Positions 2,201 to 15,563 of a stretch of 15,563 nt of DNA are shown piece by piece. The position numbers were made by a program, and so were the translations under genes. The notes beneath the pieces were generated by a model that had not been told where the DNA came from, ran no database searches, and saw only the letters and a program-made list of their open reading frames with translations. Source of the stretch: a virus (Duplodnaviria; Heunggongvirae; Uroviricota; Caudoviricetes). The stretch lies in the IMG/VR virus record IMGVR_UViG_2718217897_000008, one strand, 5' to 3'. Every line of letters starts with the position of its first letter. Positions within the stretch are counted from its first letter, which is position 1.

Positions 2201-2350
2201 CATCTACATGTCACAACGTGCATCTACGCCATCAAACCACGTCAAATAATCAATTATGACGCAGGTATCGTATTAATTGATCTGCATCAACTTAACGTAA
2301 AAACAACTTCAGACAATACAAATCAGCGACACTGAATACGGGGCAACCTC

Positions 2351-2545
2351 ATGTCAACTAAGAACAGAACCCGCAGAACAACAACCCGCAACATCCGCTT
2401 TCCTAACCAAATGATTGAACAAATTAACATCGCTCTTGAGCAAAAAGGGTCTGGGAATTTCTCAGCCTGGGTCATTGAAGCCTGCCGTCGGAGACTAACG
2501 TCAGAAAAGAGAGCATATACATCAATCCAGAGTGATGATGAATAA
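2351..2545 (+). CDS. ylcI: small ribbon-helix-helix-like DNA-binding protein, 64 aa (YlcI/DUF3950-like; homolog of the lambda right-end ORF)
   Basis: 64-aa ORF starting immediately after the lambda right-end homology; basic N-terminus followed by a predicted strand-helix-helix pattern (IRFPNQMIEQINIALEQKGSGNFSAWVIEACRRRL). Symbol is tentative. Confidence 0.55.
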   Translation: MSTKNRTRRTTTRNIRFPNQMIEQINIALEQKGSGNFSAWVIEACRRRLTSEKRAYTSIQSDDE

Positions 2546-2906
2546 ACATCCCGGTTTCTTCCACCATCGCACCGGAAAAGCGACTATGAGGGTAACCCTG
2601 CGTCTGTCAGCACAGTAAAACCCGGTGTGCATCGTTTTTGATTATTCCCGCACACTCACGCAGAAGGAATTCCCCGTCGGGCTACGGTCATGGTTAATGC
2701 GGGAATACGGCGACGATACAGCGCAGCTAAAAGGGTAATGGACAGAAAGAGCGGTTTATTTCATTCCACAGGATTCTGAGTGCCCCCCCCTCCTCCAATA
2801 GGCTGAGCATCCACCTATATAGTTTTAATTTTCATCAATCCATTTAACTATCGTTTAATTGTTGTCACATAGGATTCTGCCGTTTTTAACAATGCAGGAT
2901 AATAAG

Positions 2907-3200
2907 ATGAAAAAAATGTTGTTTTCTGCCGCTCTGGCAATGCTTATTACAGGATGTGCTCAACAGACGTTTACTGTTGGAAACAAACCGACAGCAGTAA
3001 CACCAAAGGAAACCATCACCCATCACTTCTTCGTTTCGGGAATTGGACAGGAGAAAACTGTTGATGCAGCCAAAATTTGTGGCGGCGCAGAAAATGTTGT
3101 TAAAACAGAAACCCAGCAAACATTCGTAAATGGATTGCTCGGTTTTATTACTTTAGGCATTTATACTCCGCTGGAAGCGCGTGTGTATTGCTCACAATAA
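2907..3200 (+). CDS. borD: Bor outer-membrane lipoprotein (serum resistance), 97 aa
   Basis: Translation MKKMLFSAALAMLITGC... with a lipobox (LITGC) and near-identity to lambda Bor as recalled; the ORF-track start at 2859 is an upstream extension, the homologous start is ATG at 2907. Confidence 0.85.
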   Translation: MKKMLFSAALAMLITGCAQQTFTVGNKPTAVTPKETITHHFFVSGIGQEKTVDAAKICGGAENVVKTETQQTFVNGLLGFITLGIYTPLEARVYCSQ

Positions 3201-3210
3201 TTGCATGAGT

Positions 3211-3228
3211 TGCCCATCGATATGGGCA
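3211..3228. terminator. inverted repeat between convergent bor and Rz (possible bidirectional terminator, no clear U-tract)
   Basis: TGCCCATCGATATGGGCA dyad in the 31-bp gap between the bor stop (3200) and the Rz stop (3232). Confidence 0.35.
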
Positions 3229-3231
3229 GCT

Positions 3232-3693
3232 CTATCTGCACTGCTCATTAATATACTTCTGGGTTCCTTCCAGTTGTTTTTGCATAGTGATCAGCCTCTC
3301 TCTGAGGGTGAAATAATCCCGTTCAGCGGTGTCTGCCAGTCGGGGGGAGGCTGCATTATCCACGCCGGAGGCGGTGGTGGCTTCACGCACTGACTGACAG
3401 ACTGCTTTGATGTGCAACCGACGACGACCAGCGGCAACATCATCACGCAGAGCATCATTTTCAGCTTTCGCATTAGCTAACTCCTTCGTGTATTTTTCAT
3501 CCAGTGCAGCAACATCACGCTGGCGCATCTGCATGTCAGTAATTGCCGCGTTCGCCAGCTTCAGTTCTCTGGCATTTTTGTCGCGCTGGGCTTTGTAGGT
3601 AATGGCGTTATCACGGTAATGATTAACAGCCCATGACAGGCAGACGATGATGCAGATAACCAGAGCGGAGATAATCGCGGTTACTCTGTTCAT
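3232..3693 (-). CDS. rzpD: Rz inner-membrane spanin (i-spanin), 153 aa
   Basis: Near-identity to lambda Rz ([44 protein letters not shown]...); N-terminal transmembrane segment; ATGA start/stop overlap with the upstream endolysin. Confidence 0.85.
3291..3473 (-). CDS. rzoD: Rz1 outer-membrane lipoprotein spanin (o-spanin), 60 aa, embedded in Rz in another frame
   Basis: Translation [24 protein letters not shown]...[16 protein letters not shown]: lipobox plus proline-rich region characteristic of Rz1, nested within Rz. Confidence 0.8.
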
Positions 3694-4187
3694 TGCTGAC
3701 CCCACAAACAGATTTCACGCTCAATCTCACGACGAGTCATGAGACCTTTCCATTGCTTACCGCCAGCATATGTCCAGCGACGTAGCTGATCACATGCGCC
3801 TTTGATATCGCCCTGGTTTATTTTGCGAAGAAGCGTCGATGTTCTGAAATTGCCAGCGCCCACGTTGTAAACGAACGAGTAAAGAGCGCCGCGCGTTGTT
3901 TCCGGTATATCAACTTTTATGTACGGGTTAATTTGTCTGGCGACCGTGGCAAGGTCTTTATTCAGGAGGGCTTTGCATTCTGCTTTGGTATACGTTTTAC
4001 CGAGCATGATGTCTTTTCCTGTATGCCCGTGACATACAGTCCATACACCAACAATATCTTTGTATGGTATGTAGCTGACACCTTCCAGACCATCGTTACC
4101 ACTTGGGCCAGTGATTAACACTGATGCTATAGCAATTGCTCCGCCACCAATAGCAGCAGCAACGGCTTTTCGTAATGATGGAGGCAT
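3690..4187 (-). CDS. rrrD: SAR endolysin (phage 21 R-type lysozyme), 165 aa
   Basis: Gly/Ala-rich signal-anchor-release N-terminus ([20 protein letters not shown]) followed by the E-x8-D-x5-T lysozyme catalytic triad spacing ([17 protein letters not shown]); one-nucleotide overlap with the holin stop. Confidence 0.85.
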
Positions 4188-4402
4188 TATTCACCTCTCG
4201 CAGCCTTGCGCTTATCTTCTTTAATCTTGAAATAAAGGTTTGTCAGGTACGTCAGCAGGCCAAATACCAGGCTACCCAGCACACCTATTGCTGCCCACTG
4301 TGAGGGCGTGACTTTATCGAGCAGCTGTAAAAACCAGTAACCGGCACTACCTGCTGAGGTGCCATAGGCGACACCCGTTGTTAACTTATCCATGGATTTC
4401 AT
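4187..4402 (-). CDS. essD: pinholin (S21-type class II holin), 71 aa, with dual-start motif
   Basis: Translation [28 protein letters not shown]...[36 protein letters not shown]: two transmembrane segments, Met1/Met4 dual start typical of holin/antiholin pairs, GAGGTGG Shine-Dalgarno upstream; the ORF-track start at 4447 is an upstream extension. Confidence 0.8.
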
Positions 4403-4990
4403 AACCCCACCTCGCAGACAAAGCGGGTGTAAATTGAGGGAATACAACGTATCGCAAAAAAGCAGAAACGTAACAGACTCGGAGTCAGTGAATAACTCAG
4501 GTATTGAGTTATCAGCTAATATCGAGACTCAAAAAATGGAAAAACCAGCTCGACGGCGGGTTTAAGCTGTGTGACGAAGTAACCACTCTTAACAGCATAA
4601 CCAATTTTTTACGTACGTAAACCACTGAATGATATTTATGAGAATGCTACCGAGTGTTCAAAACACCACCACAAATATATAAGAAAACCTCAACAAATAA
4701 CCAATAAATAATTTCCGGCGTTATTTTTAGTTGATTTAAATTAAACCACTGAATTATAGAACCCCCATAAATAACAGCCATTAATATAAATTAGCTAATA
4801 GGTTTATTTTTGTTCAAATAAGAGCCATAAATAGGTTTCGATAGAAAAAGTTCAGATAAAAATAGAGATCTACTTCACAAATTAAATGAGAAACTAAAAC
4901 TTACATCTTGAAATAATCACATTGATTAGATGAATATTTATCGCGCAGTGACATCATTTTTTAATAATAGTTCAAAAAAAAGGGCTCACG

Positions 4991-6073
4991 ATGAAAAAAT
5001 TAACAGTGGCAATTTCTGCTGTAGCTGCATCAGTACTGATGGCGATGTCTGCTCAGGCAGCTGAAATTTATAATAAAGACAGTAACAAGCTGGATCTGTA
5101 CGGGAAAGTTAATGCCAAGCACTACTTTTCCTCTAACGATGCAGATGATGGTGATACTACTTATGCCCGTCTTGGCTTCAAAGGTGAAACCCAAATCAAC
5201 GATCAACTGACTGGTTTCGGTCAGTGGGAATATGAATTCAAAGGCAACCGCGCTGAATCTCAAGGTTCCTCCAAAGACAAAACCCGTCTTGCATTTGCAG
5301 GCCTGAAATTCGGTGACTACGGCTCAATCGATTACGGCCGTAACTACGGTGTAACATACGACATCGGTGCGTGGACTGACGTTCTGCCAGAATTCGGTGG
5401 CGATACCTGGACCCAAACAGATGTGTTCATGACTGGTCGCACCACTGGTGTTGCAACCTATCGTAACAACGACTTCTTTGGTCTGGTCGATGGCCTGAAC
5501 TTTGCTGCTCAGTATCAGGGTAAAAATGACCGCACTGACGTAACTGAAGCCAATGGTGATGGTTTCGGTTTCTCCACTACTTATGAGTATGAAGGATTCG
5601 GCGTGGGTGCAACCTATGCTAAATCAGATCGCACTGACGGTCAGGTCGCCTATGGTAAGAGCAAATTCAATGCCTCCGGCAAAAATGCGGAAGTATGGGC
5701 TGCAGGCCTGAAATATGATGCGAACAATATCTATCTGGCTACCACATATTCTGAAACTCAGAATATGACCGTTTTTGGTAATAACCATATTGCAAACAAA
5801 GCACAAAACTTTGAAGCAGTAGCACAATATCAGTTTGACTTCGGTCTGCGACCATCTGTTGCTTACCTTCAGTCAAAAGGTAAAGACCTTGGTGTTCATG
5901 GTGACCGAGACTTAGTCAAGTATGTCGATGTCGGTGCTACTTACTACTTTAATAAAAACATGTCCACTTTTGTTGATTACAAAATCAACTTAATTGACGA
6001 TAGTAAGTTTACCAAAACAGCTGGTATTGATACCGACGACATCGTCGCTGTAGGTCTGGTGTATCAGTTCTAA
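4991..6073 (+). CDS. nmpC: general porin of the OmpC/OmpF/PhoE family (NmpC/OmpD-like), 360 aa, apparently intact
   Basis: Signal peptide [23 protein letters not shown] then AEIYNKD...; porin family blocks ([26 protein letters not shown], ends ...VAVGLVYQF with C-terminal Phe); no interruption. Confidence 0.85.
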
Positions 6074-6080
6074 TCTGATT

Positions 6081-6123
6081 ACGAAAAAGATATGTTGCGG
6101 GAGGCTTTGCCTCCCCAACATAT
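6081..6123 (-). terminator. rho-independent terminator on the minus strand (candidate tR' of the late operon)
   Basis: 15/16-bp stem (ATATGTTG(C)GGGAGGC / GCCTCCCCAACATAT) with a 3-nt loop, followed on the minus strand by a CTTTTTCGT U-tract. Confidence 0.5.
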
Positions 6124-6211
6124 AAGTGGCTCCCTCAAGCCACTTCCTTTAGAAGCACAACCTTGCTTCTAACTATATAAACCTTCTGTTATATATTACC
6201 CTTTATTTTTG

Positions 6212-6236
6212 GGGGCGTCTCAACGCCCCATTTTTA
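6212..6236 (+). terminator. rho-independent terminator on the plus strand (likely nmpC terminator)
   Basis: GGGGCGT-CTCA-ACGCCCC hairpin followed by ATTTTT(AATAATTTTT). Confidence 0.55.
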
Positions 6237-6262
6237 ATAATTTTTAGTAAACAATTGGCATA

Positions 6263-6646
6263 TTAATTAGAGTTATTAACAACGATATCCATCTCTAACC
6301 GGATATCTAATGCCATTAACATCCCTTCAATTATGCCCTCAGCCTTCTGTAACCTTTTCCCGATATAACCATCAGAGCAGCAATGCTTACCTGCCAGTGA
6401 CATGAATGTCATACCGACTACATAATAATCTACTAATAAATCATGCAAATCGCTGTTGTTCTTTTTCAGACGGGCCATGCACCCGCAAATGATCATCGCG
6501 TCATCGTCACAACATTGTGGGCGAGATTTTACTTTTGAAGGAATTAATCCCTTAAAACCGGCGGCAATGGACGACCAGGTCACATCTTCATGATTATTAG
6601 CCGCCCACGCTCCCCAACGCTCAAGAACCATCTGAATATCACGCAT
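6263..6646 (-). CDS. quuD: late-gene antiterminator Q, 127 aa
   Basis: Translation [31 protein letters not shown]... with Cys-rich zinc-binding region; GGAG Shine-Dalgarno before the ATG at 6646 (the ORF-track start at 6661 is 5 codons longer); sits at the end of the nin region ahead of the late promoter. Confidence 0.8.
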
Positions 6647-6731
6647 CAACTTACTCCACAAAACTCAGACCAGAACGCCAATTACAAGCAAAAATCAACA
6701 AAACAGTATTAGTTGATTGTTATCTCTGACT

Positions 6732-6869
6732 TCATACTCCTGCTCCTGTCAGTGTTTTGGCGTAATTCTTCAGTATTCGGTAATCGGTCAAAACAGAACC
6801 GGGGAAACGATATAAGCGCAGGCGCATCCAGCGGTGGCGAAGAAGTTCTGCCATATAAAACTCAAACAT
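6732..6869 (-). CDS. ylcG: small nin-region protein, 45 aa (YlcG-like)
   Basis: Hand translation [45 protein letters not shown]; start overlaps the rusA stop (TGATG), conserved position between rusA and Q. Confidence 0.6.
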   Translation of the reverse strand: MFEFYMAELLRHRWMRLRLYRFPGSVLTDYRILKNYAKTLTGAGV

Positions 6870-7231
6870 CATTCATCTCCCTGTTCAGTGATGGTCAGTT
6901 CCAGCTTTCCACCTTTGACAACCGGCATCTTCACAACGCGGTAATCAACGACCTGAGCATCATCCAGCCAGAAACCTGCTTTGGTGAGTGCGTCAAAAGC
7001 GGCCTTTTGTAGATTATCCAGGTCACGGCGACGGCGATCCGGCATGTGACACTCAATGCGGATTTTCACAGGCATAGCCAGGCCGATATCCAGCATTGCG
7101 TTTTTAATGATTCGGGCGACGTTTTCGCGGTATGCCTGCCCCTCTGCGCTGATGTGCGTGCGCCCGCGATTATGGCGGTAATAGCGATTATTGCTCGGCG
7201 GCCAGGGTAATGTGATATTGTAGGTATTCAC
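6869..7231 (-). CDS. rusA: RusA Holliday-junction resolvase, 120 aa
   Basis: Translation [39 protein letters not shown]... matches RusA as recalled; length 120 aa; overlaps the ybcO stop. Confidence 0.85.
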
Positions 7232-7518
7232 GCCTTAATTACCCCCTCTTTCAGCCAGATAACCTGCGTTCTCGCCATACCTTCCAGCGCGCATTCTTTT
7301 GCATATCCAGCGTCAACAAAATGCGTGCGACGGTCGATCTCGTCGTGACAGGCAGAACATGCAATGGTGGCAATCAGGTCTGGCGGTTTGATACCGGTAC
7401 CGCACAATCCAGCCAGCCGGATATGTGCCAGTACAGACGTTTCAGGATTGCCATTACATACGCCAGGGATTCTTACCTGGCATTCCCGACCACGCGCTGC
7501 TTTTCTCAAATCAGCCAT
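7228..7518 (-). CDS. ybcO: DUF1364-family protein (putative nuclease), 96 aa
   Basis: Translation [38 protein letters not shown]... with Cys/His cluster; start overlaps the ninE stop by 8 nt; the ORF-track start at 7557 is an upstream extension. Confidence 0.7.
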
Positions 7519-7681
7519 GATTCCTCCTTGCTGCCAGTCGCAACCATTTTTTATCAACCAGGCTGGCGGTATATCCGAGCAGTGTTGGTATTTCGGATGG
7601 TTTCAGCTCAGGCTTACGCTTACGACGATTTGGTACTTTGTAGATGTGTCCGTTCATGACACGAATAAGCGGTGTAGCCAT
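7511..7681 (-). CDS. ninE: NinE, 56 aa
   Basis: Hand translation [56 protein letters not shown] closely matches lambda NinE; TAATG overlap with the ybcN stop; absent from the ORF track because it is under 60 aa. Confidence 0.8.
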   Translation of the reverse strand: MATPLIRVMNGHIYKVPNRRKRKPELKPSEIPTLLGYTASLVDKKWLRLAARRNHG

Positions 7682-8136
7682 TACGCCTCCTGCTTATCAC
7701 GCAGCAGCTGGAACTCGCAGCTCTGCGGAATAGTCAGGTGGCAGCCAATATTCATCGCCCAGGCTTCAACCTTACACAGGAAGACATACATCTCTCCGGT
7801 ATCAAGGTCGGAGGTATGGCGTAACGACTGGATAGTGGTGATATCACCGGTTACGACATCAACCAGGTCTTTGGTTTCATAACCGAGATATGTGTGTTTG
7901 AGAGCATCTTTTACCCAAGCTGGAGTGGCGAACGTTTTACCCCTGCTGATGAGGTATTCACTGATTTCGCTGTACCACATGTGGCTGAGTGCATTCTGGG
8001 AAAGACTGCGTTTCTCACGCCACGGTTTAAGCACCATGCGAAAGCATTTGCCCTCCTCCAGATAAGGCTGGATCTGCCGACCGATAGCGGTGAAGTTGCC
8101 GCGATGTAATTTGATGCCGTCTTGTGAGAGGTTCAC
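7681..8136 (-). CDS. ybcN: NinB-family protein, 151 aa
   Basis: 151-aa ORF with a GTG start preceded by GGAGGTG; position directly upstream of ninE as for lambda ninB. Confidence 0.75.
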
Positions 8137-8234
8137 GCTTCACCTCCGCAGAGGTCAAACGCTAGATGCAAAGAATTGCAGGTGCATTTCTGCATCTGTG
8201 AAGGGAGAAGAGAGTTTGGATTGTATGTGCGCAT
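8133..8234 (-). CDS. ylcH: small protein, 33 aa (YlcH-like)
   Basis: Hand translation [33 protein letters not shown]; its stop overlaps the ybcN GTG start (GTGA). Confidence 0.5.
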
Positions 8235-8257
8235 AAACGTCCCCGTTTAGCGCAGAA

Positions 8258-8286
8258 GTCACCGGAGTTGTTCAGGCTCCGGTGAC
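8258..8286 (-). terminator. 10-bp perfect-stem hairpin between ybcM and ylcH (possible tR2-like nin-region terminator or attenuator; weak U-tract)
   Basis: GTCACCGGAG - 9 nt - CTCCGGTGAC, followed on the minus strand by UUCUGCGCU. Confidence 0.35.
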
Positions 8287-8350
8287 ATAATTATGCCGTG
8301 TTGATTTCCCAAAATCAAAATCGATAGAATTGCTCCTTCTTAAAACACTT

Positions 8351-9148
8351 TTACTCTCTGGAAGCTTTTCTTATCTCTCTTGGTGTTATATTAAAACGAT
8401 TATGAAATCTTTCAGTAAAACGAGAAGGACACTTATAACCATTTTCTCTGGCAATCTCGCTTATAGGTTTTACCGTCGTTTGTATAGCAGACAACGCATT
8501 ATTTAACCTCACATCGTCCAGTATACTTTGGAAACTTACCCCCTCGCTTGCTAGACGGCGATGTAATGTAGAAACAGAAATGTAGAGATATCGAGCAACC
8601 TTGTTTGCTGTCCATTTTGTGCCGGGTTCGGATAGCAGCAGGTTATAACAACGACTTATCAATGATTGTTTACTATATGATAAAAGTAAATGATTAACAT
8701 GATTCACTCCTAACGAAAGTAGAACGCCCATTGCTAAGTGCTCCTGAATTTTAGTTGAGAAGCCTCGGGAAACAGATGTTTTTAGTTGCTCCCAACAATA
8801 TATTAACTCAGGATTCTGAGGTAAAAAGAAACTTGTTTTGTTACGTATTTGATCAGTTACCGTATAAAGTTTTTGGAAACTCTCAATTAAATCAATGGGT
8901 AAGTAAAGCATTTCTGCAAGATAAAGCCCTGCTTCAGGATAATTCTCAATATAAAATTCATAACCACAAGGAAATAATATTATTTGATTATTATCAACAG
9001 TTAAAGTATGCGTCTCCCAATTGATAACTTTCTTTCCCTGACGGATACGACACAAAGCTGGCATAAGAGGCTTAACCCTATGAATCTCATGATGTTTATG
9101 CATCCGTATTTCTTCGATCTTTAAGTTAGTCTTACCTCTTGCCAGCAT
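8351..9148 (-). CDS. ybcM: AraC/XylS-family transcriptional regulator, 265 aa
   Basis: C-terminal AraC-type HTH ([42 protein letters not shown]...[27 protein letters not shown]); AT-rich codon usage; directly downstream of ybcL. Confidence 0.8.
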
Positions 9149-9157
9149 ACTCTCACC

Positions 9158-9709
9158 CTACTTTATCTCATAAACTGGTGTTATCTCAGCGGTTGCGATT
9201 TTATTAGCATTAAGCATATAACCAACTAACGCTCCGCTGGAGTTAGAATCTACAGGAATCTTTTCAGTTTTTAGAGCCCATACTTTAAACTGGTAATGAT
9301 GTGGTTTATCTCCTTTAGGAGGACATGCGCCACCAAACCCAGCATAGCCAAAATCATTTCGGCCTTGAACAGCACCAGTCGGCAGTTTTGTTCCATCACG
9401 TCTCCCTGCATCAACGGGCAAATATGTTACTGTTGCTGGAATATTAACAACAGTCCAATGCCACCAACCACTGCCTGTAGGTGCATCTGGATCATATACA
9501 GTTACGGCAAAGCTTTTGGTACCTTCAGGAACACCAGACCAGGTTAATGAGGGCGATGTATTACCACCTTCACACCCAAATCCAGAAAAGACATGAGACG
9601 TTGTAAGTTGCTCTCCTGTTTTTATTTCATTACTAGTGACCTGAAATGCTGCAGCCTGCGCAGAAAATGTTATGAATGCCAATACAGTTGAAACGATAAG
9701 TGTTTTCAT
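9158..9709 (-). CDS. ybcL: secreted PEBP/RKIP-family (UPF0098) protein, 183 aa
   Basis: Signal peptide MKTLIVSTVLAFITFSAQAAA; PEBP-like motifs (YDPDAPTGSGWWHW, HHYQFKVWAL). Confidence 0.8.
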   Translation of the reverse strand: MKTLIVSTVLAFITFSAQAAAFQVTSNEIKTGEQLTTSHVFSGFGCEGGNTSPSLTWSGVPEGTKSFAVTVYDPDAPTGSGWWHWTVVNIPATVTYLPVDAGRRDGTKLPTGAVQGRNDFGYAGFGGACPPKGDKPHHYQFKVWALKTEKIPVDSNSSGALVGYMLNANKIATAEITPVYEIK

Positions 9710-9925
9710 AAAAACCTCTTTGTTATGACCTATCGTTATTTTATTTGATATTCCTTTATCTCATTATGCATAAAGGCGCAATGTTCATGCAAAAGCAATC
9801 ACAATTGTACCCCCAACCCAATTATTTGCCACAATATACACAAAGCACATTGATACTATCTAAAAACTCTGCTTTATTATTAGTAATACCTACGAAAGTC
9901 GGTGTTATTTTTTAACCTACCATTC

Positions 9926-9975
9926 AAAATACGTGACATACACCATTTTGCTCATAATAATTTGTCACGTATTTT
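9926..9975. repeat. 50-bp dyad element: perfect 13-bp inverted repeat AAAATACGTGACA / TGTCACGTATTTT with a 24-bp spacer
   Basis: Direct read: 9926-9938 is the exact reverse complement of 9963-9975; lies in the ybcK-ybcL intergenic region. Confidence 0.6.
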
Positions 9976-10173
9976 CAGTATTTGAATCTGCGACCAAGAG
10001 TTCTCACCTAACAAATGATTAAGATTGTATAGCTCATTTACTACCCCAATACAGCCGTACAAAACTCGCTTGTGGGAGCAAACAAAGTAATTACCCATTA
10101 AGTTTCGTCAAAGATAATTAATTCTGTCTTGCACTTTATCACCATAGCATAACTTAAAATCCGAGATCATTAT

Positions 10174-11700
10174 TTAGAAATAAATCTCACCATCAACCAT
10201 ATATTTGAGAGCACTTATCGCCTGCTGGGCGGATATTACTTTCATTAAAGGATAGTGTTTAAAAACAATGCCATTCATAAAATAGATATCACAGGTTTTA
10301 TTATCCGTATTAATTATGATTTTTTCGAATGTTTTATAGGCAAGTGTACGGCATAACTCTCGTCCATTTTTACTGGTTAAGTCAATAGCATAAAAATCAC
10401 TGAATGAATTTACACCTTTACTCTTCAAAGTTTTCAATGATACCGAAGCCCTTCGTAATTCCTTATCTAATAGTCTTATTTTCTCTGCTATAGCGGTAAC
10501 TTCAGGCGCGACAGACAATGCAACGATTAAATTATTAATTTTCATCTGAAGCTCAATAATTTTTAACTCTAAAGTTTCATTAGCATCTTTCTTGTTTTCA
10601 ACTGGTTGAATTTTGCTACAATTAAAAAGCAATTCATTAATGATATTATAATCAACCAAATCTCTTTTTATTGATGGCCTGTCACATCGATGTAATCTTC
10701 TCATCGGACAAACATAATAGCCATGCAAACTTCCAGATACCGCATGAACAATCATGGTATTACCACAAGCCTCACACTTCATAACTGTTCGAAGTAGATT
10801 TATTAGCATAGGATTCTTGCTACTATTGCTAATACCAAAAGGTGCCAACCGAATTTCCTGTACAGCGTAAAACAAATCATCTGATATGACTCTGGGATAA
10901 TAGCCAGCGATTTCACTTATCCCTTTCCCTCTTGCACGATATGAAGGTACGCATATACCTATCAGAGCTTTATTCGCTAATAATTTTTCAATTACAGAAG
11001 GTCCCCATGCACTTTCTTTTCCTGAGAAATTCTTTACAGCATGATCATTTAAATACTTGGCTATTGCATTCAATGAGCGCCTTTCCATCCTGAGTTTAAA
11101 AATTAGCTCAATAGTTTTCACCCTGTCGGGGTCTGGAACAAAAGCCGTTCTTTTGTCATCTAAGGAGAGCCATCTCGGACAAGACGCCGTCATAATCGTA
11201 CCTGATTCCAGTGCATCCTGCCGTTTTTTCTTCCATGATAATTTAACCCGACTTGACTTTATCTCGCTTTCTTCATTTGCCCTTTGTGCTATAAGTATGG
11301 CTTTTATTAATGAATATGGCTCATTCAAAGAGTCAATATTATAGACTGTATTGTCGCAAAGAGTTATAACATCAATACCGTGATTCAAAATCAATTTCAG
11401 ACGTTCAATCGCTTCACCGACTTTTTCTCTTGAAAGTCTGTCCAGACTTTCAACTAACAATGTAGTTCCTGGCAATATATAACCATGCTCTATAGCATCT
11501 AAAAATTCCGAAAAAGCTCCTGATTGTGCATGCTTTCCTTTGAATGCACTTAATCCTAAATCTTCATATGTTATGGTATCAAGATAATAATCACTATTTA
11601 CCTTTAATCATTCAGCAATAAGTCTTCTCTGTCGGTTTAATGAGTCGCCAGACATCTGACCTGGTGATGAAAATCGCATATATGCTATGGCTTTTTTCAT
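10174..11700 (-). pseudogene. ybcK: large serine recombinase (resolvase domain, recombinase domain, zinc ribbon) interrupted by an in-frame TGA at codon 31
   Basis: ATG at 11700 gives MKKAIAYMRFSSPGQMSGDSLNRQRRLIAE (catalytic-serine motif) then TGA at 11608-11610; the same frame continues LKVNSDYY...ILPGTTLLVESLDRLSRE... into the 433-aa ORF, total 508 codons. The track ORF begins at a TTG. Confidence 0.75.
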
Positions 11701-11884
11701 GGTGACACCTGCTAACGTATGCTTTTATAAACCTTAGTGGTGGGATATAATTTTTGTTTAATTTTTATTTAAAAAGACAATTAAGGTCACATTATCTTGA
11801 ATATACAACAATAATCGTATTGCAATTTTCTTACGCCATAATCTTGAAAGCACAAAAGAATACATAAAAAATAAAGACATTAAC

Positions 11885-11924
11885 AAAAAGCATAAAACGA
11901 GGCTCATATAAATATAAGAGCCTC
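11885..11924 (-). terminator. rho-independent terminator downstream of emrE
   Basis: GAGGCTC - 12 nt - GAGCCTC hairpin followed on the minus strand by GUUUUAUGCUUUUU, about 30 nt after the emrE stop. Confidence 0.55.
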
Positions 11925-11954
11925 CATATTTTAGTCGTTTAGAAACAAATTATT

Positions 11955-12287
11955 TTAATGTGGTGTGCTTCGTGACAATAAATTAATAACCAACACACCG
12001 GCACAAATCAACATCATGCCTATAATGGCTGGCAGGTCCAGCCGTTGGCCGAAAAATCCCCATGACAGTAAGCTAATCAGGACAATACCGACTCCTGACC
12101 AGATACCATAAGCAATCCCTGTAGGAATATAAGCCAGCGTCTGAGCTAATAACCAGAATGATGCACAATAACAAATAATTGTACCAACAGATGGCCATAA
12201 CCGTGTAAAACCTTCTGAAAACTTCATTAAGGTTGTACCAATGACCTCTGCAAGTATTGCACCACCAAGATAAATATAAGGGTTCAT
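11955..12287 (-). CDS. emrE: EmrE small multidrug resistance (SMR) efflux transporter, 110 aa
   Basis: Translation MNPYIYLGGAILAEVIGTTLMKFSEGFTRLWPSVGTIICYCASFWLLAQTLAYIPTGIAYGIWSGVGIVLISLLSWGFFGQRLDLPAIIGMMLICAGVLVINLLSRSTPH, recognised as EmrE (four TM helices, conserved membrane Glu in TM1); the ORF-track start at 12341 is an upstream extension. Confidence 0.9.
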   Translation of the reverse strand: MNPYIYLGGAILAEVIGTTLMKFSEGFTRLWPSVGTIICYCASFWLLAQTLAYIPTGIAYGIWSGVGIVLISLLSWGFFGQRLDLPAIIGMMLICAGVLVINLLSRSTPH

Positions 12288-12302
12288 AGCATATTCTTTC
12301 CT

Positions 12303-12337
12303 GTTCAAACTGGAGAGAATTGTACTACAGTTTGAAC
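12303..12337 (-). promoter_or_regulatory. 10-bp perfect inverted repeat in the ren-emrE intergenic region (terminator for ren or leader structure for emrE)
   Basis: GTTCAAACTG - 15 nt - CAGTTTGAAC, 16 nt upstream of the emrE start codon on the transcribed strand. Confidence 0.4.
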
Positions 12338-12354
12338 TCAACTCACCTGTTTCA

Positions 12355-12657
12355 TCATTGTGTTCCCATTGATGTTCTTTTATATACCCTCAGTACCCGT
12401 TTCATCGCGGCACTCTGGCGACACTCCTTAAAAATCAGATTCGTGCTCACCTTTCCTTCCCGTTCTTCTCTGGTAGCGAACCGGTAATACACCGTTCGCC
12501 AGACCTTACCATCAACGACCAGGATTCCTGCCCGCGCCATTTTAGCCGCAGCCTGATTTATGCTGGTTACGGTTGCACCTGTTACCGCGGCAACGTCCTG
12601 TGCACAGAAGCTCTTATGCGTCCCCAGGTAATGAATAATTGCCTCTTTGCCCGTCAT
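12355..12657 (-). CDS. renD: Ren (Rex-exclusion resistance protein) homolog, 100 aa
   Basis: Translation MTGKEAIIHYLGTHKSFCAQDVAAVTGATVTSINQAAAKMARAGILVVDGKVWRTVYYRFATREEREGK... closely matches lambda Ren as recalled; ATGA overlap with the upstream P fragment. Confidence 0.8.
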   Translation of the reverse strand: MTGKEAIIHYLGTHKSFCAQDVAAVTGATVTSINQAAAKMARAGILVVDGKVWRTVYYRFATREEREGKVSTNLIFKECRQSAAMKRVLRVYKRTSMGTQ

Positions 12658-12890
12658 ACACTTGATCCTTTCAGTCCGAACTTAGCTTTGATTTCTGCGA
12701 TCTTCGCCAGAGCCTGTGCACGATTTAGAGGTCTACCGCCCATGACAGGAAGTTGTTTTACTGGTTCAGGTATCGCCTCACCACGGTTAATTCGCGCGGT
12801 CATACAGGACAGTTCATCGGCAGCCTTGCGCCGTAATTCCGCGTCAGTCAGCGCATTGGCCCGCATGTTCTGGTACAAGTTGGTAACCAA
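12654..12890 (-). pseudogene. C-terminal fragment of replication protein P (helicase loader), about 80 codons
   Basis: Translation ...VTNLYQNMRANALTDAELRRKAADEL..TARINRGEAIPEPVKQLPVMGGRPLNRAQALAKIAEIKAKFGLKG..V matches the lambda P C-terminus; homology runs a few codons further upstream (AYW) to a stop at 12918-12920; no O gene or N-terminal P present. Confidence 0.8.
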
Positions 12891-12900
12891 CCAGTAAGCA

Positions 12901-13266
12901 ATGGGATATGCCTCTGGTTATGTCTGGTTGAATCCACCATACAGCAATATTTCCCCTTTTGTGAAAAAGGCAGCCACTGAAAACAAATTCAGCAGTGTGG
13001 GATGTGTAATGTTATTACCTGCTGACACATCTGTCGGATGGTTTCATGAAGCGATACAAACCGCCAGTGAGGTCAGATTCATCACGGCAGGACGACTGGC
13101 ATTTATTAACCCACTCACCGGGAAACACGTCAGTGGAAATAATAAAGGCTCGATGCTCATTATCTGGCACCCATACCCCCGTACACACTGCCACTTTACG
13201 ACCGTTGATCGTGGAGAGTTGATGGCGTTCGGCTCAAGGATTCTTGCCCGTCGGGAGGCTGCATGA
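12901..13266 (+). pseudogene. 5'-truncated phage Dam-family N6-adenine DNA methyltransferase fragment, 121 codons
   Basis: Begins essentially at the catalytic NPPY motif (GYVWLNPPYS) followed by a ...MLLPADTSVGWFHE...VRFITGRLAF pattern typical of phage Dam methylases; the N-terminal SAM-binding half is missing and the ORF abuts the P fragment head-to-head. Confidence 0.6.
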
Positions 13267-13346
13267 CAACCACGGAATGCATTTTTCTGGCAGCGGGCTT
13301 CATATTCTGTGTGCTTATGCTTGCCGACATGGGACTTGTTCAATGA
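13263..13346 (+). CDS. candidate small hydrophobic peptide, 27 aa (single predicted TM helix)
   Basis: ATG overlaps the upstream stop (ATGA) and its stop overlaps the next ATG (ATGA); translation MTTTECIFLAAGFIFCVLMLADMGLVQ. Below the ORF-track size cutoff; speculative. Confidence 0.35.
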   Translation: MTTTECIFLAAGFIFCVLMLADMGLVQ

Positions 13347-13558
13347 CACCTCAGCAGGAAAACGCCCTTCGCAGCATAGCCCGTCAGGCTAATTCTGAAA
13401 TCAAAAAAGCCAGACAGCAGTTTCCGGATAAAAACGTCGATGACATTTGCCGTAGCGTACTGAAGAAGCACCGCGAAACGGTAACGCTGATGGGATTCAC
13501 ACCGACTCATTTAAGCCTGGCGATCGGCATGTTAAACGGCGTCTTTAAGGAGCGATGA
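13343..13558 (+). CDS. hypothetical phage early-left protein, 71 aa
   Basis: Translation MTPQQENALRSIARQANSEIKKARQQFPDKNVDDICRSVLKKHRETVTLMGFTPTHLSLAIGMLNGVFKER; translationally coupled to the upstream small ORF; the track ORF starting at 13244 is an out-of-context extension. Confidence 0.5.
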   Translation: MTPQQENALRSIARQANSEIKKARQQFPDKNVDDICRSVLKKHRETVTLMGFTPTHLSLAIGMLNGVFKER

Positions 13559-13656
13559 ACATGAAAAGCAAAATCATCAGGGAGCTACAGGCTCCTTTTT
13601 TATTATTCGCATTCACCCTCAAGCGTATTAACCAACAATTCAGGGATTAATGGAAG

Positions 13657-13875
13657 ATGGCAGACATCATTGATTCAGCATCAGAAATCGAAGAATTACA
13701 GCGCAATACAGCAATAAAAATGCGTCGTCTGAACCACCAGGTTATATCTGCCACTCATTGTTGTGAGTGTGGCGATCCCATAGATGAACGAAGACGCCTG
13801 GCCGTTCAGGGTTGTCGGACTTGTGCAAGCTGCCAGGAGGAGATCGAACTTAAGAACAAACAATGGGGATTGTGA
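13657..13875 (+). CDS. TraR/DksA-family C4 zinc-finger protein, 72 aa
   Basis: C-x2-C ... C-x2-C pattern (CCECGDPIDERRRLAVQGCRTCASCQ) with preceding acidic helix, typical of phage/plasmid TraR-like proteins. Confidence 0.7.
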   Translation: MADIIDSASEIEELQRNTAIKMRRLNHQVISATHCCECGDPIDERRRLAVQGCRTCASCQEEIELKNKQWGL

Positions 13876-13922
13876 TGGCCTCAAAGCAGCAAATTTCAAC
13901 ATCGTCCAACTGAGGTGTAAAA

Positions 13923-14201
13923 ATGTTCAGAATCATTTTGCCTAACACCTGGTACGTCGACCACCACGGCACTCCCTGCAAAATCCTGCGTTCTACCCAC
14001 AACAAAGTTCACTACATCCGAAAAGGCAGAACATGTATCGCCAGCATGTTCCGCTTTAATCATGACTTTGAACCTGTGAATAAAGCTGATGCAGATCGGA
14101 TAGCAGAAGAGATCGAAACGGCAGAACACATTAAGAAGTTACGTGACATGCGTTCAAAAAGCAGAGGTAACCATGGAATCATACAGCCTCACACTCGATG
14201 A
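13923..14201 (+). CDS. hypothetical protein, 92 aa
   Basis: ATG at 13923 preceded by a GAGGTG Shine-Dalgarno at good spacing; no recognisable motif. Confidence 0.5.
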   Translation: MFRIILPNTWYVDHHGTPCKILRSTHNKVHYIRKGRTCIASMFRFNHDFEPVNKADADRIAEEIETAEHIKKLRDMRSKSRGNHGIIQPHTR

Positions 14202-14544
14202 GGCCTGTCAGTTTCTTAAGATATCCAGACCAACCGCCACCAACTGGATACGAACAGGCCGCCTACAGGCAACACGTAAAGATCCAACCAAGCCAAAATC
14301 TCCTTACCTCACAACACGGCAAGCCTGCATTGCGGCGCTTCAGTCTCCGCTGCATACTGTCCAGGTGAGCGCGGGTGATGGCATAACAGAGGAAAGAAAA
14401 TGTCACTCTTCCGCAGAAATGAAATATGGTATGCCTCGTATTCGCTCCCGGGCGGGAAACGAATTAAGGAATCTCTTGGCACAAAGGACAAGCGGCAAGC
14501 TCAGGAGTTGCACGACAAGCGAAAAGCAGAACTCTGGCGAGTAG
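14173..14544 (+). CDS. xisD: excisionase-like (AlpA/Xis-family HTH) ORF, unusually extended so that it overlaps the integrase start by 145 nt; possibly a pseudogene
   Basis: [31 protein letters not shown] has the Xis/AlpA-type HTH; GAGGT Shine-Dalgarno before the ATG at 14173 (the track ORF starts 10 codons earlier at 14143); the frame runs on to 14544, well past the int ATG at 14400. Confidence 0.5.
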
Positions 14545-15563
14545 AAAAGCTAGGGGATTTACCTGATGTCACTTTTGAAGAGGCCTGCCTAAGATGGCTT
14601 GAGGAAAAAGCTGATAAAAAATCTCTCGATTCAGATAAAAGCCGGATTGAGTTCTGGCTTGAACATTTTGAGGGTATAAGGCTTAAAGATATCTCGGAGG
14701 CAAAGATTTACTCTGCTGTAAGCAGAATGCATAACAGAAAGACGAAAGAAATATGGAAACAGAAAGTTCAGGCCGCCATCAGGAAAGGTAAAGAACTGCC
14801 TGTTTATGAACCAAAGCCAGTACCAACTCAGACAAAGGCAAAGCATCTTGCCATGAGAAAGGCCATTCTCCGTGCTGCAGAACGCGACTGGAAGTGGCTG
14901 GAAAAAGCGCCTGTCATCAAGATACCAGCGGTCAGAAACAAGCGAGTCAGATGGCTGGAAAAGGAGGAAGCAAAACGCCTTATTGATGAGTGCCCCGAAC
15001 CACTGAAATCTGTCGTCAAGTTTGCGCTGGCAACTGGTCTGAGAAAGTCGAACATCATAAATCTGGAATGGCAACAAATCGACATGCAGCGACGAGTTGC
15101 CTGGGTGAATCCAGAAGAGAGCAAATCAAACCGCGCCATTGGTGTGGCGCTGAACGATACCGCCTGTAAAGTGTTGCGTGATCAAATAGGCAAGCATCAC
15201 AAATGGGTGTTTGTACATACCAAGGCGGCTAAGCGAGCAGATGGAACATCAACGCCTGCGGTCAGGAAGATGCGCATCGACAGCAAGACATCATGGCTAT
15301 CAGCTTGTCGTCGTGCAGGAATTGAAGATTTCCGTTTCCATGACCTCAGACACACCTGGGCAAGCTGGCTGATTCAGTCAGGCGTCCCATTATCAGTGCT
15401 TCAGGAAATGGGCGGATGGGAGTCCATAGAAATGGTTCGTAGGTATGCTCACCTTGCGCCTAATCATTTGACAGAGCATGCGAGGAAAATAGACGACATT
15501 TTTGGTGATAATGTCCCAAATATGTCCCACTCTGGAATTATGGAGGATATAAAGAAGGCGTAA
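14400..15563 (+). CDS. intD: P4-type tyrosine integrase, 387 aa
   Basis: C-terminal catalytic-domain motifs (...[10 protein letters not shown]..., [23 protein letters not shown] with the catalytic Tyr); N-terminal arm-binding-like domain; terminal position next to xis. Confidence 0.9.

Follow-up and report, generated by a model that had tools for sequence, protein, structure and literature searches.

In phage lambda the exclusion gene ren is followed directly by the nin genes, as stated in an initial annotation of the DNA studied here; ninB comes after a gap of 73 bp. EmrE, encoded at the corresponding position in the DLP12 prophage of E. coli, exports cationic drugs via proton antiport. In K-12 the order of genes at this position is renD-emrE-ylcJ-ybcK-ybcL-ybcM-ylcH-ybcN. 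The emrE gene has been described as a moron of prophage Perceval, expressed from the prophage (PMC9928086), and ybcLM as an autoregulated operon tied to oxidative stress (PMC8464067), and YbcL in UPEC has been found to dampen neutrophil migration (PMC4810123).

The window analyzed here, a stretch of 15,563 nt, corresponds to a cryptic E. coli prophage of the DLP12 type, in which every gene has been named previously, and the block between its ren and nin genes is the known emrE-ybcK-ybcL-ybcM accessory set of DLP12-type lambdoid prophages. The block (8351-12287) is 100% identical to that of the DLP12-like prophage at argU in E. coli AST205, and the remaining window is mostly 99.99-100% identical to the same prophage, positions 1783-2261 being different. 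K-12 DLP12 agrees with the window in gene content, order and position, with 99.8% nucleotide identity over the block and shared protein accessions for YbcL, YbcM and YbcN, but its ybcK is intact, as opposed to the W31* allele of the window, and its ren is truncated by IS3, while that of the window is complete. The nmpC gene is intact in the window; in K-12 it is presumably interrupted by IS5.

The same block is also found in viable phages. In the ECOR-derived phages PhiR68_2, PhiR34_1 and PhiR70_1, the ren-to-ninE stretch, block included, is 99.6-99.7% identical to the window, and the phage 82 record (X92588) matches window positions 6731-8367 at 96%, reaching into the last 17 nt of ybcM. In these phages the modules for replication and immunity are complete and ybcK is intact, whereas the P gene of the window's prophage is truncated and fused to a methyltransferase fragment. 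Perceval, 4A7 and Lambda_4C10 (emrE-ybcK-esterase) and the O157:H7 prophage at icd (emrE-ybcK only) use the same site and share emrE-ylcJ-ybcK with the window at 96-97.5% identity (window 10133-12896), but in place of ybcL-ybcM the former carry an oppositely oriented alpha/beta hydrolase and the latter an unrelated 280-bp spacer. An origin of this spacer by deletion from the esterase cassette was considered and rejected, as the common sequence amounts to only some 27 nt beside ybcK.

Composition and gene content of the block

Homology breakpoints and GC content define a variable interval at 8320-12381, slightly larger than the 8351-12287 delimited initially; this interval and all features below lie on the minus strand. 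At its 8320 edge, homology to phages with other cargo ends at 8319/8320, and at the opposite edge homology to lambda, SfI, Stx phages and the P-ren region of PhiR5_1 begins at 12382. The extra DNA between ren and the nin segment amounts to 4.06 kb. The initial annotation had viewed the block as AT-rich foreign cargo, co-directional with its neighbors, between ren and a NinB-family gene, and gene calls, Pfam matches and GC content agree with this view: ybcM, ybcL, ybcK, ylcJ and emrE all share the direction of ren and ybcN. It had also listed four genes, and the family assignments stand, although the small fifth gene ylcJ had been missed and ybcK is broken here. GC content is 36.3% in 8320-12354 versus 48.4% and 48.0% in the phage flanks, GC3 is 0.26-0.35 versus 0.44-0.61, and 300-nt windows differ in composition between block (13) and flanks (16; Mann-Whitney p = 7e-6). 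Uniform composition, together with the presence of the block in lambdoid phages, had been named as evidence against the idea of an inserted block; the block does occur in PhiR68_2, PhiR34_1 and PhiR70_1, and up to the end of ybcM in phage 82, but its GC and codon profile is distinct. Elsewhere in the window, GC also drops below 40% in AT-rich islands around appY (1-1400) and upstream of nmpC (4401-5200). An Rfam scan of the whole window returned no matches.

On the ren side, the block begins with emrE (11955-12287), encoding a 110-aa multidrug/quaternary-cation efflux transporter of the four-helix SMR fold (Multi_Drug_Res PF00893, E 1.9e-34) that matches PDB 3B5D over its full length (1-110, E 5e-69), retains the conserved membrane-embedded Glu14 in MNPYIYLGGAILAE and belongs to PHROG 1395, categorized as 'moron'. 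It is followed by ylcJ (11758-11907), annotated in RefSeq and encoding a hydrophobic protein of 49 aa (YlcJ PF23688, E 2.4e-35). The flanking ren gene (12355-12657; PHROG 142 Ren-like, E 6e-42) has its last ~9 codons within the variable interval, and its product matches lambda Ren at 90% identity across residues 1-92, the C-termini being divergent. On the other flank, the conserved nin segment starts with ylcH (orf33, 33 aa; 8133-8234), annotated in AST205 and in the phage 82 record and located between the block and ybcN (7681-8136). YbcN matches PHROG 72 NinB/Orf (E 3.7e-52), but scores 21.7 bits against Pfam NinB, under the 23.8 cut-off, and is 23% identical to lambda NinB (BLASTP E 0.34); it is thus best regarded as a distant NinB-family member at the same position. 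Features of the phage 82 record, mapped onto the window, place a putative nin promoter and a conserved inverted repeat (TTGATTT..AAATCAA) right at the cargo boundary (8290-8319), with the -35 at 8313-8318 and the -10 at 8290-8295; our scan matched TTGATT-17-CATAAT at 8318-8290, and the repeat is retained in all six cargo variants compared.

The nin-proximal part of the block is the ybcL-ybcM pair. The ybcL gene (9158-9709) encodes a periplasmic PEBP/RKIP-like protein of 183 aa with a signal peptide (PBP PF01161, E 3e-42); PDB 1FUX covers residues 20-183 (E 1.6e-112), which correspond to the mature protein minus its hydrophobic leader, MKTLIVSTVLAFITFSAQA. Annotated in RefSeq and 265 aa long, the AraC/XylS-family regulator YbcM (8351-9148; HTH_18 and HTH_AraC) bears a C-terminal double helix-turn-helix domain (HTH_18 at residues 185-261, E 9.5e-17) and an N-terminus with a weak, sub-cut-off ExsA_N-like match (E 6.5e-4). 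The proposal that both genes form a functional pair is supported, since they lie 9 nt apart, are conserved together in E. coli (at two loci), E. albertii and Plesiomonas, and YbcM binds upstream of ybcLM in ChIP-exo assays, with autoregulation (PMC8464067). The accompanying statement that their signal is unknown no longer holds entirely, for a ybcM deletion raises sensitivity to H2O2 8-fold (PMC8464067). The region upstream of ybcLM (9710-9864) is kept in the DLP12-type locus, in E. albertii and in a second type of E. coli locus, beside fliE. Its promoter hexamers, detected by scanning (GTGGCA-17-TACAAT at 9832-9804), are identical to a constitutive promoter mapped by genomic SELEX to the ybcK-ybcL spacer and flagged as H-NS bound, and the same study placed promoters in both spacers of the K-12 block (PMC3946193). 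A consensus promoter and terminator scan of the block yielded counts equal to those of shuffled sequences, and the case for autonomous expression in the strain of the window is hence drawn from the K-12 literature.

The ybcK recombinase gene

The ybcK gene (10174-11700) encodes a large serine recombinase, as judged from its translation and from Pfam, PHROG and RefSeq assignments, but is a pseudogene here. A single in-frame TGA at codon 31 (11608-11610), TGG in PhiR68_2, parts the catalytic serine from the remaining protein, so the frame is not uninterrupted in the window, and RefSeq lists the gene as a pseudogene ('internal stop') in AST205, which carries the identical block. The conceptual product contains Resolvase (residues 4-161, E 4e-18), Recombinase (PF07508, E 2e-14) and Zn_ribbon_recom (PF13408, E 8e-8) domains, with the motif YMRFSSPGQ at residues 7-15 (R-x-S-S at 9-12) and zinc-ribbon cysteines at 309, 312, 331 and 339. 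It matches PHROG 95 'integrase' (E 4e-120), and a sequence search against PDB gave no match at E <= 1e-3. The gene is intact in 79 of 80 IMG/VR loci, and its A- and B-type alleles differ at 38 synonymous and 13 non-synonymous codons, a pattern of purifying selection that keeps ybcK intact in most relatives. Our literature search found no publication pairing 'ybcK' with 'serine recombinase'.

A cargo hotspot with exchangeable modules

In related viable phages, at least five different sets of cargo end at the same two breakpoints as the block (8319/8320 and ~12382-12395), which identifies the ren-nin slot as a cargo hotspot. Alternative cargo with the same flanks comprises PD-lambda-1 and Rha, an acyltransferase and a lipoprotein, Rha and hypothetical proteins, or emrE-ybcK and an esterase. 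Complete phage genomes with the same flanks and wholly different cargo indicate that the cargo is dispensable for phage growth. Our literature search yielded no publication that treats the ren-nin slot as a hotspot.

The block itself comes apart in several ways. Three arrangements are seen among 80 IMG/VR loci: emrE-ylcJ-ybcK alone (~38), with ybcLM (30) or with the esterase (~9), and they diverge within ~40-70 nt of the ybcK stop codon. A locus beside fliE, with emrE-ybcL-ybcM but not ybcK, is present in 2593 of the 5426 complete E. coli genomes. A non-phage nature was rejected for this fliE-type locus on account of the remnants that it keeps, namely the end of ren, ylcH and a fragment of the Q gene; its ORFs are intact and under purifying selection. 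Alignment of the window to one such locus (L008) is continuous except for a 2083-bp ylcJ-ybcK segment (9865-11947), replaced there by 4 nt, and the emrE/ybcL joint varies in length across loci (13, 115 or 2083+ nt). In E. albertii, emrE-ybcL-ybcM lies next to a tyrosine integrase, again without ybcK, and in Plesiomonas ybcL-ybcM is found alone between ychF/pth/prs and lpp/eptA. A comparison of contexts outside prophages, as had been proposed, locates ybcL-ybcM among Plesiomonas housekeeping genes; the whole block is seen only within ren/ylcH flanks.

Taken together, these data make it quite probable that the block is moron cargo of a DLP12/phage-82-type prophage, made up of separately exchanged modules in a hotspot and not driven by the recombinase. 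In this reading the hotspot runs from the 3' end of ren to the promoter-proximal side of the nin segment (ylcH-ybcN), and the block combines three or more modules with separate histories: emrE, ylcJ-ybcK and the ybcL-ybcM operon. Judging from the breakpoints, ordinary mosaic recombination among phages, of a homologous or illegitimate kind, most likely assembled and exchanged the modules at conserved boundaries, and YbcK would presumably not be their mover. Recombination at repeated boundaries finds support in PhiR26_1, where window 8166-8319 recurs internally as a 156-nt copy (80% identical) between two cargo modules, and in locus L105, where a duplicated 229-nt DUF1367 5' end flanks the recombinase module. 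In K-12, sigma-70 promoters that belong to the modules and lie in AT-rich spacers bound by H-NS have been published (PMC3946193), and the modules may be transcribed likewise here, where the ybcLM hexamers are present. YbcM activates or autoregulates ybcLM and aids peroxide tolerance.

As one of the four genes encodes a large serine recombinase, it had been suggested that the whole block arrived as its own small element, which YbcK would have inserted between ren and ninB. In favor of this view, the block that contains the recombinase gene is AT-rich and sharply bordered, and YbcK homologues in other genera are located at prophage termini, like integrases. While the foreign cargo and the ybcL-ybcM pair of the earlier interpretation stand, this part of it is not supported, and we consider it very improbable. 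The borders at 8319/8320 and ~12382 are the same for cargo without any recombinase; parts of the block occur without ybcK, as in the 2593 fliE-type genomes, and ybcK without ybcLM; and, unlike elements mobilized by a recombinase (Tn4451/Tn5397, SCCmec, serine-integrase prophages), the block was not seen with the same ends in a different target. In addition, ybcK, broken here and confined to one slot in 80 viral loci, sits mid-block: emrE/ylcJ separate it from the ren-side border (12381), 681 bp away, and ybcL-ybcM from the nin-side border (8320), at a distance of 1.85 kb. The search for recombinase target sites revealed only short chance matches as direct or inverted repeats around the block or the ybcK segment, although att sites share only ~2 bp and could escape inspection of the sequence alone. 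An anti-phage defense island, like other cargo in the hotspot, is an extremely improbable reading as well. Relatives do hold defense genes in this slot (PD-lambda-1 in PhiR26_1, SIR2 in L105) and the neighboring ren is an exclusion gene, but no PADLOC model matched any block protein (nor the alternative esterase), and EmrE, YbcL and YbcM have characterized non-defense roles.

A narrower version, in which the ylcJ-ybcK segment alone is or was a self-contained element, either a minimal recombinase module or what is left of a recombinase-integrating element, inserted at the emrE/ybcLM joint of an older cargo, is still unlikely in our judgment, but has more in its favor. The segment is a clean indel with respect to the fliE-type locus, and its absence from the E. 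albertii outgroup makes insertion the parsimonious direction; moreover, in nearly all relatives the gene is intact and under purifying selection, and single-gene YbcK-family modules with non-coding flanks of 100-600 bp are seen repeatedly in the accessory slots of prophages that are unrelated, and also on a plasmid-like contig. Against it, ybcK is present in one or two copies in each of the 1426 E. coli genomes that carry it and occupies the same slot, within the emrE/ylcH-ybcN frame, in all 80 viral loci examined, so that nothing points to continued mobility. Repeats were not seen at the junctions, and nine YbcK-family loci lacked conserved ends, apart from ~68 promoter-proximal nt shared by two of them and a 188-nt match, in inverted orientation, close to ssrA. 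The variable emrE/ybcL joint fits a module boundary generated by illegitimate recombination. Even so, the conservation of an intact recombinase leaves room for an active role, such as secondary integration or cassette capture downstream of ybcK. It is conceivable, if distinctly doubtful, that YbcK-type recombinases are single-gene hitchhikers (~2.1 kb, with their own flanks) that colonize hotspots of tyrosine-integrase phages, here at the emrE/ybcLM joint, and that they might offer a second integration route or a means of cargo capture.

Relation to morons and large serine recombinases

As textbook K-12 annotation, the block itself changes nothing. It does provide a clear example of cargo that has outlived its phage: in about half of E. 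coli genomes, emrE and ybcLM are all that survives of a decayed prophage next to fliE. Were YbcK active, it could account for the exchange of cargo at the hotspot, or offer a new enterobacterial integrase. With regard to known systems, YbcK has the same resolvase-recombinase-zinc ribbon architecture as the large serine recombinases (phiC31 Int, Bxb1 Int, A118 Int, TnpX, TndX and CcrAB), but its gene is not located at an element boundary in E. coli, and its host phage already has a tyrosine integrase, IntD, adjoining tRNA-Arg. Phage morons (Hendrix, Juhala; e.g. lambda bor and lom) have their own promoters, are dispensable for the phage and are useful to the host. The block shares with them its nature as extra DNA between genes that adjoin each other in relatives, its atypical composition, its dispensability and its usefulness to the host, but departs from them in being a stack of several modules instead of a single gene, and in that one of these modules encodes a site-specific recombinase, which is no typical host-benefit gene.

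A DLP12-type prophage and its AT-rich block

The window is a defective lambdoid prophage of the DLP12 type, reversed in orientation relative to K-12, and the AT-rich block singled out by the initial annotation (8351-12287, minus strand) is a long-known and fully annotated part of DLP12. The E. coli AST205 chromosome carries the block at 100% identity and matches the window at 99.99-100% over 731-1782 and 2262-15563; the sole unmatched stretch, 1783-2261, comprises 479 bp that are replaced there by ~1.86 kb of tail-fibre genes. The gene order begins with appY, tail-fibre remnants and the lysis genes rzpD, rrrD and essD, and proceeds through the nmpC/ompC porin to quuD, ylcG, rusA, ybcO, ninE, ybcN and ylcH; these are followed by the block itself (ybcM, ybcL, ybcK, ylcJ and emrE), by ren, fragments of P and of a methyltransferase, and small genes, and finally by intD, which adjoins tRNA-Arg just beyond the window. 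The prophage is defective: at 12654-13266, replication gene P is reduced to its last 78 codons, a remnant that abuts a DNA adenine methyltransferase fragment in the opposite orientation, and O, cII, cro and cI are lacking by comparison with the viable lambdoid phage PhiR68_2. The sequence ahead of the porin gene (4991-6073; nmpC/ompC-like, 360 aa) is very rich in AT (4401-5200, 28-36% GC); the gene itself is intact, and two viable relatives, Perceval and PhiR68_2, carry the same porin.

As an observation, the description of the block as co-directional genes of lower GC inserted where lambda passes directly from ren to the nin genes is correct. Its limits are exact, 8351 being the ybcM stop and 12287 the emrE start, and Pfam upholds the assigned families: AraC (HTH_18), PEBP and SMR, together with a serine recombinase bearing Resolvase, Recombinase and Zn_ribbon_recom domains. 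YbcL and EmrE match PDB entries 1FUX and 3B5D, respectively. The block genes, ren and ybcN all lie on the minus strand, and the ren-ninB gap in lambda spans just 73 bp. GC content is 36.3% in the block against 48% on either side, a significant difference in 300-nt windows (p = 7e-6), and GC3 is lower still. Passed over were ylcJ, a small gene within the block seen with Pfam, ylcH, a 33-aa gene ahead of ybcN, and further AT-rich islands at appY and upstream of nmpC. The flanking gene reported as ninB is ybcN, which belongs clearly to PHROG 72 (NinB/Orf) but scores under the Pfam cut-off and shares 23% identity with lambda NinB; it is a distant relative of NinB only. An Rfam search matched no RNA family, and defence-system models returned no match to the block proteins.

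The reading of ybcL-ybcM as a module is right, yet already published: YbcM binds upstream of ybcLM, and ybcM deletion lowers H2O2 survival 8-fold (PMC8464067). According to another report, UPEC YbcL, freed by lysis, suppresses neutrophil migration (PMC4810123). In prophage Perceval, emrE has been described as a moron (PMC9928086), and sabinene tolerance is altered by overexpression or deletion of ybcK, according to the literature. Both the emrE-ybcK and the ybcK-ybcL spacer hold constitutive sigma-70 promoters together with H-NS according to genomic SELEX (PMC3946193), and the ybcK-ybcL promoter (GTGGCA-17-TACAAT) occurs in the window at 9832-9804.

A cargo hotspot between ren and ybcN

Comparison of the window with related phages by BLASTN delimits a variable interval at 8320-12381. 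On the nin side, the homology of every alternative cargo phage ends at 8319/8320, 31 nt beyond the ybcM stop and coincident with the -35 of a promoter annotated upstream of orf33 in the phage 82 record (X92588), which itself reaches 48 nt into the cargo and spans the ybcM end. At the ren end, the window becomes homologous to lambda, SfI, Stx phages and PhiR5_1 from 12382, within the final ren codons. An inverted repeat, TTGATTT-N3-AAAATCAA (8300-8319), lies exactly on the cargo border and overlaps the -35 of that putative nin promoter; its stem is conserved and its loop variable in six of six cargo variants, and it may mark a boundary for recombination or serve in regulation.

Between these same two borders, PhiR26_1 carries PD-lambda-1 and Rha, PhiR30_1 an acyltransferase and a lipoprotein, and PhiR5_1 Rha and small ORFs, while emrE-ybcK plus an esterase in the opposite orientation make up the cargo of Perceval, 4A7, Lambda_4C10, 1W, 3W, D2 and Turner. 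The full emrE-ylcJ-ybcK-ybcL-ybcM set is present, at 99.6-99.7%, in PhiR68_2, PhiR34_1 and PhiR70_1; the same block at this position in lambdoid phages is one half of what the initial annotation had named as telling against its reading, uniform composition being the other. Because related viable phages have varied cargo between the same borders, the interval is a general hotspot for cargo in the lineage, one that the emrE-ylcJ-ybcK-ybcL-ybcM block occupies in functional phages too.

Modular arrangements within and beyond E. coli

The block genes occur in four arrangements: A, as in the window, K-12 and PhiR68_2; B, emrE-ylcJ-ybcK with the esterase; C, emrE-ylcJ-ybcK with a 280-bp spacer, as in the O157:H7 prophage at icd; and D, emrE-ybcL-ybcM without ylcJ-ybcK. 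The 80 IMG/VR loci recovered with YbcK (~38 of type C, 30 of type A and ~9 of type B) share a constant frame, with emrE on one side of ybcK and ylcH-ybcN on the other. Arrangement D adjoins fliE (e.g. L008, E. coli EC4, 8686-10936), is ~92% identical to A and was found with a junction-spanning probe in 2593 of 5426 complete E. coli genomes; the A-type block is present in 670 E. coli genomes and ybcK in 1426, the fliE-side locus being far commoner than the DLP12 version. With the ren stop region, ylcH and part of the Q gene still in place, the D locus, which abuts an IS200/IS605 transposase, is what remains of a lambdoid prophage that decayed except for its cargo. Its three ORFs are intact, synonymous changes greatly exceeding non-synonymous ones. 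At this fliE-type locus the empty site reads GTTATCTCAAGGATAATTATT.

In E. albertii, emrE-ybcL-ybcM lies at a different site and forms an outgroup to A and D. There, a P4-type tyrosine integrase directly adjoins the three genes (L097, 4403-7798), and the islet seems to interrupt an operon for an oligopeptide ABC transporter. One Plesiomonas genome carries ybcL-ybcM alone amid housekeeping genes. Compared with D and E. albertii, arrangement A has a clean extra segment of 2083 bp (9865-11947), located where the emrE module meets the conserved 155-nt ybcLM upstream region.

YbcK and the assembly of the cargo

The proposal that the block arrived as its own recombinase-driven mobile element is not supported. 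Its outer borders are common to recombinase-free cargo, ybcK sits mid-block and in the same slot in all 80 viral loci examined, and E. coli genomes hold just one or two ybcK copies. Neither direct nor inverted repeats were found bracketing the block or the 2083-bp segment. On the other hand, PhiR26_1 holds between two cargo modules an internal 156-nt copy (L004, 3999-4153; 80% identical) of window 8166-8319, which suggests that cargo was stacked by recombination at this boundary sequence. Likewise, in an uncultured lambdoid contig (L105), a duplicated 229-nt DUF1367 5' end (7623-7851 and 10609-10831; 82.5% identical in nucleotides, 97% in amino acids) flanks a YbcK-homologue module of recombinase, KGG and DinI, with a SIR2 gene in the same interval. 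Repeated boundary sequence within such composite cargo points to ordinary inter-phage recombination as the favoured route.

The ybcK copy in the window, an annotated pseudogene, is dead: codon 31 (11608-11610) is an in-frame TGA, unremarked initially, in place of TGG in PhiR68_2, and W31* cuts the catalytic serine (residues 11-12) off from the rest of the protein. The allele is rare (1 of 80 IMG/VR loci) and K-12 ybcK is intact; across its relatives ybcK shows no general decay, being intact in the other 79 loci, and A- and B-type alleles differ by 38 synonymous and 13 non-synonymous codons.

Homologues of YbcK at 40-60% identity occupy three kinds of location: the final prophage position after tail-fibre assembly genes, adjoining host DNA, as in Atlantibacter (540 bp from the ssrA 3' end), Erwinia (beside lepA), Ewingella and Yersinia; the stretch from the replication genes to Q in further lambdoid prophages (Pantoea and the L105 contig); and a plasmid-like contig in Citrobacter. 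The Atlantibacter homologue (L092, 9530-10432; 59% identical) ends a prophage with a Mu-like tail and sits where the integrase of that prophage is expected; the far end, beyond the sequence seen, might carry a tyrosine integrase. A comparison of the flanks of YbcK-family loci revealed no recognisable end sequences in common. In phages that have IntD, YbcK would be a second recombinase, of the serine type. Given the locations of its homologues and the classification of YbcK among integrases by PHROGs, this conserved recombinase family looks like the integrases of phages.
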